Source: Candidatus Thiovulum karukerense
Lineage (GTDB): Bacteria; Campylobacterota; Campylobacteria; Campylobacterales; Thiovulaceae
DNA: 64,000 bases
NCBI GenBank assembly: GCA_024281215.1
Contig: JAMJTX010000134.1
Coordinates: 1,569 to 65,568, forward strand
Direction of reading: 5' to 3'
Positions 451 to 3,598 of this stretch are shown piece after piece. A program made the translations under genes and the position numbers. Below the pieces are notes generated by a model. That model made no database searches. It was not told the DNA's origin and was given only the letters and a program-made list of their open reading frames with translations. Within the stretch, counting starts at the first letter, position 1. The number at the start of each line of letters is the position of its first letter.

Positions 451-1094
451 ATGATTGATAAAAAGAGGATTTATAATCCTGACTCGAAAGAGATAACAAA
501 AGAGCGAAAGATATTTGGCGGAAATCCGACGGGTATTTTTGAGCTTAATGATATTAAATATCAATGGGCTTATAATCTTTGGGAAGCGATGTTAAATAAC
601 ACCTGGTTTCCAAAAGAGGTGAATATGAATAGCGATGTCAAGGATTATCGTGATGGTCTAAGTGATAGAGAGAAGAATGCTTATGATAAAGCTCTTGCTC
701 AACTTATTTTTATGGATTCTCTACAGACAAACAACATTATTGATAATGTAAATCCATACATTACAGCACCAGAAATTAATCTTATTCTGGTTAGACAATC
801 GTTTGAGGAGGCTCTTCATAGTCAATCGTATGCTGTTATGGTTGATTCTATCTCATCAAATAGTGATGAGATTTATCAACTATGGCGAAAAGATATGATG
901 TTGAAGACCAAGAATGACTCTATCGCAAGAGTCTATGAGGAGTTAGCAGAGAAACCAACAGCTCATAACTTTCTAAAATCTCTCTTTGCAAACCAAATTC
1001 TTGAGGGGATCTACTTCTACTCTGGTTTTGCATATATATATGCTCTTGCAAAGAGTGGAAAGATGTTAGGAAGTTCTCAGATGATCAAGTTCAT
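451..1094 (+). CDS. nrdB: Ribonucleotide reductase class I beta subunit, exon 1
   Basis: [10 protein letters not shown]...[22 protein letters not shown] and EEALHSQSY iron-ligand motif. Homology ends at ...SSQMIKFI, and the remaining 7 codons to the stop (KLIVTI*) are intron sequence. Boundary is +/- a few nt. Confidence 0.85.
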
Positions 1095-2023
1095 TAAATT
1101 AATAGTGACTATATAACAGAAATGTATATAGAAAACCTCCTTAAAACGGGAAACTCTGACCGAGTCGTGTCGAAGACAATCCGTTGCTAAAGAGTGCTTT
1201 AAGTTGTCTTATCTTACAGTATCTCATCTCGACAAAAAGGATATTAAGATGAGACAAATCTTGGATTATCCAAACTATTCAGTAACATCTGATGGAAAAG
1301 TTATCTCAAATCAGAGAGTTGCAGGAAGAAGTGGAAAGGGTATCAGTACAAAAGAGAAAGAGTTAGCACAGATGTATAATCAAAGAGGCTACAAAATGGT
1401 AAATCTTATTAGAGATAAAAAATCGAAAACAAGATATGTTCATAGATTAGTAGCTCAAGCTTTTATACCTAATCCAGATAATTTACCTCAAGTCAATCAT
1501 ATTGATGGTAATAAAGAGAATAATGATGTTGCTAACCTTGAATGGGTATCAGCAAAAGAGAATAATCATCATGCATTAAGAACTGGACTTAGAACAGGTC
1601 AAAAGGGTAGTGCAAACTCTCAATCCAAGCTACAAGAAGAAGATGCAATTAAAATAATTCATTTAGTTATGCAGGGACTATCTAATATAGAGATAGCAGA
1701 ACAGTTTAAACTGCACGATAGATATGTCTCTTTAATCAGAGGTAAAAAAAGATGGAAACATTTATGGGAGACAATGTATCAAAATGAAGAAGTTCCATAT
1801 TCTTGTAGAAAAAGAACAAAAGCATTTAATGCCGAACGACTATCGAAAGCACAGCTTACAGAAAAGCTGGAAGCGAGTAGAGTAGAATCAAGTGATTCGA
1901 AACGGGAGGACTCTTAGCAGAATCAATGATTGCTGAAGAGTGTGATATAGTCTGCTCTATATGGAAACATATAGCTGGATATAGTTCCGGAGTAAGATTA
2001 ACGACCTTACTTGAACATCAAGG
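1095..2023 (+). mobile_element. Group I intron (about 929 nt) interrupting nrdB, carrying a homing-endonuclease ORF
   Basis: It interrupts the conserved NrdB I-x-RDE-x-x-H motif. Exon TCAT (1091-1094) can pair with GTGA (1105-1108), giving a U.G wobble at the 5' splice site. The last intron base is G (2023). A GAAA-capped 7-bp hairpin lies at 1957-1974. Joining 1094 to 2024 restores the frame (..KF-I-QRDEVTH..). Confidence 0.75.
1249..1917 (+). CDS. Intron-encoded HNH homing endonuclease (NUMOD4-like N-terminus, HNH core, C-terminal HTH)
   Basis: [20 protein letters not shown] (NUMOD4-like); [40 protein letters not shown] (HNH); [22 protein letters not shown] (HTH). An AAGGA RBS precedes the ATG at 1249, so the track ORF start at 1204 (TTG) is probably too early. 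Confidence 0.8.
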
Positions 2024-2423
2024 ACAAAGAGACGAGGTGACACACCTCTTAATTTACCAAAATATGATTAAAGATCTGAAGAAAGAGAGACCAGACCTAT
2101 TTACAACTCAGCTCATTGAAGAGGTTGAAGATATGTTTAAAGAGGCAGTTGAACTTGAGACAGCTTGGGGTAAATATATTACCGATGGAGAGATTCTTGG
2201 ATTGACAGATAAACTTATTGAAGATTACATCAAATATCTTGCAAATCAGAGACTCTCAAAAGTTGGTATGCAACCTCTATATTTAGTTAATGAGAATCCT
2301 CTTAAATGGGTTGATGATTTTGCAAAGTTTAATGACCAGCGAACAAACTTCTTTGAGGGGAATGTTACCAACTACACAAAAGGTTCATTAACCTTTGAAG
2401 ATGACTGGGATAGAGACTTTTAA
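2024..2423 (+). CDS. nrdB: Ribonucleotide reductase class I beta subunit, exon 2
   Basis: [18 protein letters not shown]... continues NrdB through to the C-terminal tail. The track ORF residues before QRDE (1926-2023) are intron sequence. Confidence 0.85.
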
Positions 2424-2507
2424 TAGTTTCTGTTATTACCATAGATGAGTTAGTGATCTATCACTGAGATCGAAAAGATAGATAGATTATAATTCGCAAT
2501 CAATTTT

Positions 2508-2529
2508 ACCCCCTAAAGAGTTTGGGGGT
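2508..2529 (+). terminator. Hairpin ACCCCC-N10-GGGGGT downstream of nrdB
   Basis: Perfect 6-bp GC-rich stem followed by a T-containing tract (ttaccaaatttcttt). Confidence 0.5.
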
Positions 2530-2584
2530 TACCAAATTTCTTTAAGGGAGAGGTGCTAGATTCAGTTTTAGTGCCAAATATAGT

Positions 2585-3598
2585 ATGAGCCTAAATAGTA
2601 TCAATTTAGTAGAGGAGATAGAGCGACTTAAGAGAGAGCTTGATGTTACTGTTGTCGCTCACTTCTATCAGAAAGATGAGGTTTTTCAGTTAGCTGATAT
2701 AACTGGTGACAGTCTAGAACTTGCAAAAAAGACAGTCAGTAGTGATAGTGAGTTTGTTGTCTTTTGTGGTGTAGGTTTTATGGGTGAGAGTGTTAAAGTT
2801 CTTAATCCAGAAAAGAGAGTAATTATGCCTAAAATGGCTTGTTGCTCAATGGCACAGATGATTGATGGAAACTACTATGATAAATCTATTGAGATTCTTC
2901 AGAAGAGCGGTGTCGCTAAAGAGAATATTATGCCCATTACATATATCAACAGCAGTGCTGAAGTAAAAGCAAAAGTTGGAGAGATGGGCGGAATGGTCTG
3001 TACAAGCTCAAATGCTGAGATGATTATTACCAATGCTCTGGATAGTGGAAAGAAGATTCTCTTTGTTCCTGATAGATGTCTTGGACAGAATATTGCAAAT
3101 AAGATGGGATTAAAATCATCGATTGTTAATATTCTTGATGATAGGGCTGATGAGGTTCATCAAGAAGCAGATGTTATCTGTTATGATGGTTTCTGTTCTG
3201 TCCATCAGCTCTTCTCAACTGATGATATAGATTTCTACCGAGAGAAGTATCCAGATATTCTTGTAGCTGTTCATCCAGAGTGCGATCCAGCTATTGTTGA
3301 GAAATCTGACTTCACAGGTTCAACTTCACAGCTGATTAAATATATCAAAGATTTACCAGAAGATCAGAAAGTTGTTGTTGGAACTGAGTTTAATATGGTC
3401 AATAGACTGAGAGAGAAGAATACTTATGTTCTATCTTCAACAAAACCAGAATGTCCAACAATGAATGAGACTACCCTTGAGGATCTATATCGAACTCTTA
3501 AAAGTATCGAAGATGGTGAGCCATTCTATGAGGTTGAATTGGATTCAACTGTTCAGCAAAATGCAAAACTTGCTCTTGAGAGAATGTTAGCTCTTTAA
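2585..3598 (+). CDS. nadA: Quinolinate synthase
   Basis: 337 aa with NadA-like layout (VVAHFYQ, FCGVGFMGES, MVCTSSNA, VHPEC, PECPTMN). Confidence 0.85.
   Translation: MSLNSINLVEEIERLKRELDVTVVAHFYQKDEVFQLADITGDSLELAKKTVSSDSEFVVFCGVGFMGESVKVLNPEKRVIMPKMACCSMAQMIDGNYYDKSIEILQKSGVAKENIMPITYINSSAEVKAKVGEMGGMVCTSSNAEMIITNALDSGKKILFVPDRCLGQNIANKMGLKSSIVNILDDRADEVHQEADVICYDGFCSVHQLFSTDDIDFYREKYPDILVAVHPECDPAIVEKSDFTGSTSQLIKYIKDLPEDQKVVVGTEFNMVNRLREKNTYVLSSTKPECPTMNETTLEDLYRTLKSIEDGEPFYEVELDSTVQQNAKLALERMLAL

Follow-up and report, generated by a model that had tools for sequence, protein, structure and literature searches.

A probable phage-type group IA intron carrying an HNH endonuclease gene interrupts chromosomal nrdB in Candidatus Thiovulum karukerense

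Introduction

How does an essential gene come to lie in two pieces on a bacterial chromosome, and could the pieces still yield one protein? The question arises in a 64,000-nt stretch of Candidatus Thiovulum karukerense DNA (contig JAMJTX010000134.1, positions 1,569 to 65,568; hereafter the window, in whose numbering and on whose plus strand all features are given unless stated otherwise), where gene callers report the class Ia ribonucleotide reductase (RNR) gene nrdB as two open reading frames (ORFs) of 221 aa (451-1116) and 165 aa (1926-2423). A first-pass annotation, made from the sequence alone, had proposed that a group I intron with an HNH homing endonuclease separates them. We argue here that the 929-nt insert at 1095-2023 is very probably a mobile, self-splicing group IA intron (IA2-like, phage type) in a chromosomal class Ia nrdB, with ends set by protein alignment, the U1094.G1105 wobble and a terminal G, and with a fold that covaries among homologues.

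A 929-nt insert interrupts an otherwise intact nrdB

From the ATG at 451 the nrdB frame stays open up to ...GSSQMIKFI, where similarity to NrdB ends at 1094, and the first stop that it meets beyond this point is a TAA at 1114-1116. Similarity restarts at 2024 (A|CAA AGA GAC GAG, encoding I-QRDE), and between the two lies an insert of exactly 929 nt (3n+2), in which stops interrupt the frame of nrdB. These boundaries and stops had been put forward in the first-pass annotation and are confirmed by the frame and by orthologue alignment. Exon 1 (451..1094) comprises codons 1-214 plus the AT of Ile215, while exon 2 (2024..2423) supplies the third base of that codon, continues with QRDEVTH... and ends in a stop at 2421-2423; the insertion point is after the second base of the Ile215 codon, directly before the Q-R-D-E-x-x-H iron-ligand motif. 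Together the exons, of 644 and 400 nt, make 348 codons including the stop. The predicted 347-aa product, of about the length anticipated, aligns without gaps to 11 orthologues and, judged by its sequence, is a class Ia NrdB in which the I-x-RDE-x-x-H signature and its RDE-x-x-H metal ligands are restored.

The joined NrdB matches Pfam Ribonuc_red_sm (PF00268) at 4e-81 over profile positions 2-281 of 281 and the equivalog model NF007184 of NCBIfam at 514 bits, against a cut-off of 310. A database search with the joined protein retrieved 2,755 relatives, the best of which are uninterrupted, 339-350 aa long and up to 88% identical; those that are named come from Sulfurimonas, Sulfuricurvum, the Thiovulaceae and the Campylobacterales. 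Intact orthologues at 76-88% identity (n=11 aligned) run over the exon junction without a gap, and F214, I215, R217, D218, E219, T221 and H222 are invariant across it.

It could instead be supposed that the insert stays in the RNA and that the halves at 451-1116 and 1926-2423 are translated apart and assemble into an active protein. There is precedent for this in the mobE-split nrdA of Aeromonas phage Aeh1 (PMC3045599, PMC3653736), and an in-frame ATG at 1926 does open the 165-aa ORF that gene callers carry into exon 2. However, this ATG, which lies within the intron, is a chance one: the corresponding upstream extension lacks an ATG in 8 of 10 homologues, where it is 8-15 codons long, and in the window a GGAGG stands 16 nt from the ATG, a poor spacing. 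The split also adjoins the E-x-x-H metal-ligand helix, and separate translation would leave unexplained the conserved, covarying ribozyme fold, the U.G splice site and the terminal G described below. We consider it very improbable.

The insert has a conserved and covarying group I fold

At least 10 homologous introns lie at the same nrdB codon, including those of Thiovulum sp. ES and of phage-like contigs. In the ten nrdB copies extracted, which range from 898 to 1078 nt in intron length, the insert follows UUCAU, its last base is G and (A/U)CA(A/U)... comes next; an in-frame stop occurs 7-49 nt into the intron, within P1-P2, in all ten. For the covariation analysis the ORF loop was deleted and 1087-1208 joined to 1811-2029 through an artificial AAAA linker, giving an alignment of 8 distinct homologues. 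RNAalifold, which has no knowledge of group I introns, returned P1-P6, P6a, P7.1, P7.2, P8, P9, P9.1 and P9.2 from this alignment, and 25 of the 86 pairs in its consensus show compensatory changes. The program draws no pseudoknots and paired the strands of P7 elsewhere; those two helices were replaced by P7 before counting.

With P7 added, 97.4% of 652 cells pair, as against 89.0% in shuffled alignments, double changes affect 25 of 82 pairs in 60 cells (13 and 19 in shuffles), and the covariation score is 0.299 rather than 0.131. None of 500 shuffles attained the observed pairing, double changes or covariation score. When the 3' partners were slid by 1-3 columns, pairing was 29-44% and the pairs with double changes numbered 3-9. 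Covariation is found mainly in P2, P6a, P7.1, P8, P9, P9.1 and P9.2. P6a, which MAFFT had misaligned in two sequences, was checked by direct duplex search, and all 10 copies have, in the same register, a GC followed by an internal loop and a 9-13-bp helix; the helix holds despite other sequence, as in the Thiovulum sp. ES copy L006 (13 perfect pairs), in L009 (unrelated sequence) and in L011 (C-G to U-A). Folded alone, the ORF-deleted RNA of the window gives the same helices (z = -3.5). The ribozyme has kept its fold among homologues, with covariation, and comparative data for the complete fold from 10 independent loci support the group I interpretation of the first-pass annotation.

These results also bear on whether the insert might be a free-standing homing-endonuclease gene, or an intein, set in nrdB without any ribozyme. 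HNH genes are often free-standing in or between phage RNR genes (PMC2790892, PMC3653736). Here, however, some 260 nt of non-coding flanks and the 3' end of the ORF fold together into a covarying group I architecture, and the same core is found elsewhere without an ORF (L007 and the first intron of L006) or with an unrelated GIY-YIG ORF (L008, L023). An intein is ruled out by the stops in the nrdB frame and by the length of the insert, which is not a multiple of three. The covariation refutes a free-standing gene, and we assign this explanation a negligible probability.

Searches with covariance models gave a mixed picture. The Rfam check suggested in the first-pass annotation yielded, for the group I model RF00028, a local match of 20.4 bits (E 0.016) at 1944-1972, corresponding to model positions 223-251 (J8/7-P7'-P9, that is, the S element and P9), and no match at the gathering level of 50 was found across the 64 kb. 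The match falls below threshold because the ~620-nt ORF-bearing P6a loop (1201-1818) splits the core. With the same R...S...P9 core, the ORF-less first intron of the L006 nrdB scores 56.0 bits (E 3e-12), above the gathering level, and the ORF-less L007 intron, which has the same P7-P9 core, scores 42.3 bits (E 4e-8). By BLAST, Yersinia phage fHe-Yen9-04, Klebsiella phages and Twort-like Staphylococcus phages have introns in their RNR genes to which the 3' core is ~70% identical.

Architecture of the intron

At the 5' end, P1 (1091-1096/1103-1108; 6 pairs) joins the exon to the internal guide sequence UAGUGA. Its UCAU at 1091-1094 pairs with GUGA at 1105-1108, as had been proposed, and the helix is two pairs longer than was thought (U1095-A1104 and A1096-U1103). 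The predicted 5' splice site follows U1094, which forms a U.G wobble with G1105 in 8 of 8 aligned and 10 of 10 extracted homologues. P2 (1109-1118/1123-1131) is a hairpin of 8 pairs, 3 of them compensatory and all fully paired in the alignment, capped by a GAAA tetraloop at 1119-1122. It is followed by the 5' strand of P3 (CCUCCU, 1136..1141), which pairs with GGGAGG at 1904..1909 (6 pairs, 100% paired, 2 with one-sided C-G/U.G changes). P4 (1145-1150/1180-1185) encloses a variable P5 arm (1155-1157/1174-1176 plus an extension), in which a base pair covaries (C-G to U-A and back) and which differs in length among homologues. The nested hairpins that the first-pass annotation had seen in 1140-1200 find their place here, AACGG/CCGUU being P4 and the small hairpins between its strands the P5 region.

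Beyond P4', a GC at 1186-1187 pairs with 1831-1832 as P6, and 1192-1200 with 1819-1827 as P6a. Both 3' strands lie inside the endonuclease ORF, and the two helices close a loop of ~620 nt (1201-1818) that holds most of it. The 5' strand of P7 (GACUAU, 1838..1843) pairs over 6 pairs with AUAGUC at 1947-1952, forming a pseudoknot with P3, and is invariant across all homologues and in the introns of unrelated hosts (L007, L008 and L023). P7 is followed by the P7.1 hairpin (CAGCUU/AAGCUG, 1852..1869), in which 3 of 4 counted pairs are compensatory and which is missing or reduced in L006, and by the P7.2 hairpin (GAAUC-AAGU-GAUUC, 1885..1898), where a double compensatory change gives the window GAAUC/GAUUC as against GACUC/GAGUC in others (A-U for C-G). 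P8 (1910..1941) has 9 counted pairs, 2 of them compensatory (GCCCU/AGGGU in L022 vs ACUCU/AGAGU in the window), and carries the ORF stop in its 5' strand. J8/7 (GUGAU) and the 3' strand of P7 (AUAGUC) together occupy 1942..1952, within the region of the sub-threshold Rfam match.

Next to the terminal G, P9.0 pairs CU 1955-1956 with AG 2021-2022, as read from the homologue sequences, and is compensatory in L022 (GU...AC). The 7-bp GAAA-capped stem noticed earlier at 1957..1974 is P9 (7 pairs, 3 compensatory, 100% paired), and it belongs to the Rfam local match. P9.1 (1976..1989) has 4 pairs with 2 compensatory, and P9.2 (1990..2012), which bears the conserved loop AUUAACGAC, is compensatory at 7 of 7 pairs. 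The last intron base, the terminal (omega) G at 2023, had been identified correctly and is G in 10 of 10 homologues.

The helix order is P1-P2-P3-P4-P5-P4'-P6-P6a[ORF]-P6a'-P6'-P7, and after P7 it is P7.1-P7.2-P3'-P8-P7'-P9.0-P9-P9.1-P9.2. The predicted P3-P8 and P4-P6 domains are therewith in canonical group I order with the P3/P7 pseudoknot. The core holds AAACGGGAAAC (from 1143), AAUCCGUUGC (from 1178), GAACGACUAUCG (from 1834) and GAUAUAGUC (from 1944), which we take to be the P, Q, R and S elements by the established consensus (Cech 1988; Michel & Westhof 1990). Two segments, the L9.2 loop at 1997-2005 and GUAGAGUAG at 1876-1884, are single-stranded and near-invariant while the stems flanking them covary freely; they are likely, from this pattern of conservation, to be tertiary-contact sites of the ribozyme. 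The presence of P7.1/P7.2 and P9.1/P9.2 marks subgroup IA, probably of the phage (IA2) type, on the definition of Michel & Westhof 1990.

Several other placements were set aside. P7 had been drawn by eye as GGACU(1908-1912)/AGUCU(1950-1954); in the homologues GGGAGG is P3' and ACUCU opens P8. The ORF had been put in P8 or between P6 and P7, whereas the homologues place the P7 5' strand GACUAU in the R element within the ORF. A local hairpin at 1187-1203 had been taken as P6, and comparative data favour the long-range P6/P6a enclosing the ORF.

An endonuclease ORF extends into the ribozyme core

The homing-endonuclease gene at 1249..1917 encodes 222 aa with NUMOD4, HNH and C-terminal helix-turn-helix (HTH) regions and resembles I-HmuI. 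Its Pfam matches are NUMOD4 (28.4 bits, cut-off 23.4) and HNH_3 (40.6 bits, cut-off 24.8), it matches PHROG 59 "HNH endonuclease" at 2.5e-53, and a sequence search of the Protein Data Bank (PDB) returned I-HmuI (1u3e; 8.6e-10) as its sole match. An AlphaFold2 model on 18 homologues has a mean pLDDT of 80, with the N-terminal sheet, the HNH module and the C-terminal helices confident; the last 19 residues have a pLDDT below 50 and are predicted by the model to be disordered. When this model was compared with the PDB by Foldseek, the only significant match was again 1u3e (E 3.4e-8, probability 1.0, 181 aligned columns; next E 0.18), and it spans the whole I-HmuI chain. The His and Asn residues of the HNH (beta-beta-alpha-metal) motif, which aligns to that of I-HmuI, are invariant in the 18 homologues (H65, N83, H84, N92, N96, N105 and H108), and length is conserved, though some homologues stop earlier. 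The ORF is, by its sequence, intact. The NUMOD4/HNH/HTH assignment of the first-pass annotation therefore stands by Pfam and I-HmuI similarity, while its description of the ORF as free-standing in a loop does not, since the last ~30 codons lie in the core.

This overlap amounts to ~100 nt and takes in P6a', P6', P7, P7.1, P7.2 and P3', with the stop UAG at 1915-1917 in P8. The protein tail read from it is conserved among homologues as ...NA(E/Q)RLSKA...ASRV(E/D)SS(D/E)SKREDS, and its E/D swaps are the compensatory changes of P7.2. Because the end of the ORF is read from the ribozyme core, the conserved tail is largely a shadow of RNA constraints.

At the other end of the gene, a Shine-Dalgarno sequence (SD; AAGGA, 1237-1241) lies 8 nt 5' of the AUG at 1249. 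Both fall in a hairpin at 1204..1257 with a minimum free energy (MFE) of -21.2 kcal/mol (z = -4.6; 0 of 200 shuffles), which would sequester them, and weaker hairpins cover the SD and/or the AUG in the MFE folds of 7 of 9 other homologues.

In the same region we observed a motif, UCAUCUC(R)A (1222-1231), ~12 nt 5' of the endonuclease SD. It is conserved in eight of the 10 homologues and nearly so in a ninth (UCAUCCCA), despite an otherwise variable P6a loop; -10-like TAnnnT hexamers precede it in several homologues. One might speculate that it is an internal promoter or transcription start. A simple sigma-70 promoter scan of the window found no internal promoter 5' of the endonuclease gene.

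Weighing the evidence

A number of observations weigh against a self-splicing, mobile intron and temper our confidence in it. Splicing, like homing, is inferred from sequence. The covariation derives from 8 related sequences with the ORF deleted and an artificial linker in its place, and the shuffle control ignores phylogeny, which the slid-register control does not; P1, P4, P6 and P7 are invariant and so offer no covariation evidence of their own, P1 being identical in 8 of 8 sequences because the exon is the same. The Rfam match in the window stays below gathering. P10 is weak or absent, by eye. A local hairpin at 1187-1192/1197-1203 (CUAAAG-AGUG-CUUUAAG) rivals P6a for the same CUUUA bases; it may be an intermediate of co-transcriptional folding that gives way after transcription of the ORF, and its CUAAAG motif recurs at the distal strand in most homologues. 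In the endonuclease, an Asn (N83) stands where I-HmuI has its metal ligand Asp74; this is probably normal for the clade, because it is invariant in the family. Finally, 64 kb of the genome are in view, and a second, intact nrdB elsewhere is conceivable.

Some of these points would also be expected if the intron had decayed and no longer spliced, this nrdB copy then being a pseudogene in a cell that uses another reductase. Splicing is a prediction from the DNA, the view spans 64 kb of the genome and the Rfam score is below threshold. Against this, the exons are free of stops and frameshifts and give a full-length equivalog score (514 vs 310 bits), all core helices and the nucleotides at both splice sites are intact, and changes specific to the window are compensatory, as in P7.2. 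The endonuclease ORF is likewise full length with invariant catalytic residues, and the same arrangement has been kept in lineages whose exons are 60-85% identical. We therefore hold decay to be unlikely by a wide measure, and regard a functional group IA intron as the explanation to be carried forward.

Proposed splicing, homing and translational restraint

On this reading, the transcribed RNA would fold into the P1-P9.2 architecture, and an exogenous guanosine bound in P7 would attack after U1094, which UAGUGA holds in P1 by means of the U.G wobble. Exon 1, once free, would then attack after G2023, positioned by P9.0, and the exons would be ligated as ...AAGUUCAU|ACAAAGAGAC..., from which the normal 347-aa NrdB (...KFIQRDEVTH...) could be translated. 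The predicted junction in spliced RNA is AAGTTCAT|ACAAAGAGAC and the predicted junction peptide ...MIKFIQRDEVTH.... Ribosomes on exon 1 of an unspliced transcript would stop 22 nt into the intron, in P2, before reaching the core.

For homing, the endonuclease, whose activity and specificity we infer from its sequence, would nick or cut intron-less nrdB near the conserved metal-ligand site, and repair would copy the intron in. Its translation may be restrained, the ribosome-binding site and AUG being locked in the hairpin at 1204-1257, and translating its tail would unfold the ribozyme. Because of this hairpin and of the tail read from the core, it is probable that one RNA cannot both be translated into the endonuclease and fold as the ribozyme. 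The early stops, the hairpin over the SD and AUG, and the overlap of the ORF with the core fit what is known for T4 introns.

Related introns and their distribution

Copies of the intron at the same site were found in L003-L005, L006 (Thiovulum sp. ES contig AKKQ01000039.1, where the neighbouring genes are asd, hemE and carA), L009-L022 and contigs of the same organism from the Joint Genome Institute (JGI). The endonucleases form a subfamily of 56-70% identity and 191-259 aa, and all members for which a contig was retrieved lie between two nrdB fragments. Loci L003-L005 and L011-L014 have nrdA-nrdB-thyX-dGTPase-ClpP contexts, which appear phage-like; further subfamily loci between nrdB fragments are L015-L017, L018-L021 and L022. 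With a DNA pattern for the intron core, two further nrdB copies were picked up, L009 and L010.

Outside nrdB, the same P7-P7.1-P7.2-P3'-P8-P9 core occurs without an ORF in a family-B DNA polymerase gene (L007, ~645-975) and, on the minus strand of L008, in an unidentified phage-like gene with a GIY-YIG ORF (2218-3018) that starts in P4'/P6. From these combinations it is evident that ribozyme core and endonuclease genes were exchanged independently of one another. The nrdB of Thiovulum sp. ES has a second group I intron, without an ORF, after codon ~53 (NNTWF|P; L006, ~1976-2350). In L015, the product that ends at nrdB exon 1 (715-2331) has 538 aa vs the usual ~215 aa, which suggests an N-terminal fusion or extension, and in the intron of this locus both P7.1 and the P9 region contain large insertions.

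The intron is present in some and absent from other close relatives, which is the one indirect sign of homing. An uninterrupted nrdB is found in the close relative P0001 (88% identity), with the allele ...CAAATGATTAAGTTTATCCATCGTGATGAGGTAAC..., and in P0004, from metagenomes, NrdB is uninterrupted and matches the first and the last exon of the Thiovulum nrdB at 91-98% identity. Among the intron-bearing copies, the arrangement persists in diverged lineages, as noted above, and exons and introns have diverged alike (~70-80% identity both), so that there is no signal of very recent horizontal transfer.

Scans of larger collections returned little that is close. An exact-pattern scan for the P3'-P8-S core gave 0 matches in species-representative genomes and IMG/VR, and a protein scan of the representative genomes, a set that apparently leaves out the source genome and Thiovulum ES, gave only distant HNH relatives at 43-46% identity. 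No contig was retrieved by an exact search for the endonuclease protein. In IMG/VR the endonuclease has at least 583 relatives; the best 80 are mostly 34-55% identical, and among these 80 there was no close relative of the nrdB-specific subfamily.

In the window itself, nrdB is surrounded by gltX (3' end), nadA and pgk, a chromosomal housekeeping context, and the GC content of the insert (34%) is near that of the window (36%). The nrdB of the same organism, likewise split by gene callers, is present in two JGI metagenomes (L109 and L110, reached through NadA). At 2034-2048, 11 nt into exon 2, a GC-rich hairpin of 6 bp (GAGGUGACACACCUC) with a U-rich stretch behind it had been flagged as terminator-like; it is not conserved in the homologues and is probably due to chance.

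Significance of the intron

These observations may be drawn into a wider proposal, to which we give even odds. It holds that the intron belongs to an undescribed phage-type group IA lineage at a new nrdB site (Ile|Gln-Arg-Asp-Glu), common to the chromosomes of sulfur-oxidising Campylobacterota (this organism and Thiovulum sp. ES) and to phage-like nrdA-nrdB-thyX contigs, in which the ORF has grown ~100 nt into the core and translation and splicing exclude one another; its occurrence on both chromosomes and phage-like contigs would then imply phage-to-host traffic. The literature searched, which was covered incompletely, yielded no account of an intron in the nrdB of Campylobacterota or Thiovulum.

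The finding has practical consequences for annotation, as gene calling now renders an essential gene as fragments of 221 aa and 165 aa, accompanied by a stray ORF labelled "HNH" or "hypothetical". The same mis-annotation affects Thiovulum sp. ES and Yersinia phage fHe-Yen9-04, and recognising the intron restores an intact nrdB. The intron also adds to the few group I introns known from bacteria other than those in tRNA and rRNA genes and phages, bringing a chromosomal protein-coding host gene and a new phylum, provides a family of at least 10 covarying sequences for better covariance models of ORF-bearing IA introns, which Rfam now misses, and is a clean example of an endonuclease ORF that overlaps the ribozyme core. 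Its novelty lies in the insertion site and the host lineage; elements of this kind are well understood, and their presumed workings are unchanged.

Comparison with known systems

T-even phages are, as the first-pass annotation had noted, the classic setting of nrdB introns, which there carry HNH endonucleases (T4/RB3 I-TevIII; PMC1865063, PMC3653736), and homing has been demonstrated for that of RB3 (PMC1865063). Splicing of nrdB introns has been shown in Pectobacterium phage CB7 (PMC7344957). The T4/RB3 intron shares with that of the window a class Ia nrdB host gene, membership of group IA (the T4 record gives a group 1A intron), an ORF looped out from the P4-P6 side and an endonuclease of the HNH family. 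The sites differ, however, that of T4 being ~22 codons upstream, after ...FYVSFA, and so do the hosts, a phage in the one case and a bacterial chromosome in the other. I-TevIII moreover acts as a zinc-finger HNH dimer and breaks both DNA strands (PMC1865063), whereas the ORF of the window is of the NUMOD4/HNH/HTH, I-HmuI-like type.

I-HmuI of Bacillus phage SPO1 (PDB 1u3e) is also encoded in a phage-type group I intron, that of a DNA-polymerase gene, and is a nicking enzyme (PMC1865063). It is 26% identical to the endonuclease of the window, has another host gene and target, and carries Asp74 as metal ligand at the position of Asn83.

A relative of the ribozyme is found in Yersinia jumbo phage fHe-Yen9-04 (LT960551.1, L023, g298/g299/g300), where an unannotated group I intron at 1628-2667 of L023 separates nrdB into two CDS (g298 and g300) with a 'hypothetical' g299 between them. 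This intron is ~70% identical to that of the window over P7-P9.2, lies in the same RDE iron-ligand region and has the same P7.1/P7.2/P9.x layout, yet it is inserted 7 nt downstream of the window site (R|DE), carries a GIY-YIG-type ORF rather than an HNH one, and has a host NrdB that is 26-30% identical. The nrdE introns of Twort-like Staphylococcus phages and the Twort orf142 ribozyme (IA2) are likewise phage-type IA introns in RNR genes with HNH ORFs, and by BLAST the HNH ORF and 3' core of the window are similar to the nrdE region of phages Romulus and Remus. Self-splicing of the Twort intron was shown experimentally, according to the citation given in PMC3653736. These introns differ from that of the window in host gene (nrdE, the class Ib large subunit), in site and in host phylum.

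The first-pass annotation had regarded a chromosomal copy as uncommon. In kind this is so, group I introns in bacterial chromosomal protein-coding genes being called rare in the passage of PMC4853749 that cites Hausner 2014; the copy is not unique, for Thiovulum sp. ES has the same intron plus a second one. The rare chromosomal examples include Bacillus nrdE and recA (PMC2504315), Geobacillus flagellin and Thiomargarita dsrA (PMC4853749, PMC2504315). Like the intron described here, these are phage-type IA2 introns in essential chromosomal genes, from which it differs in gene and phylum.

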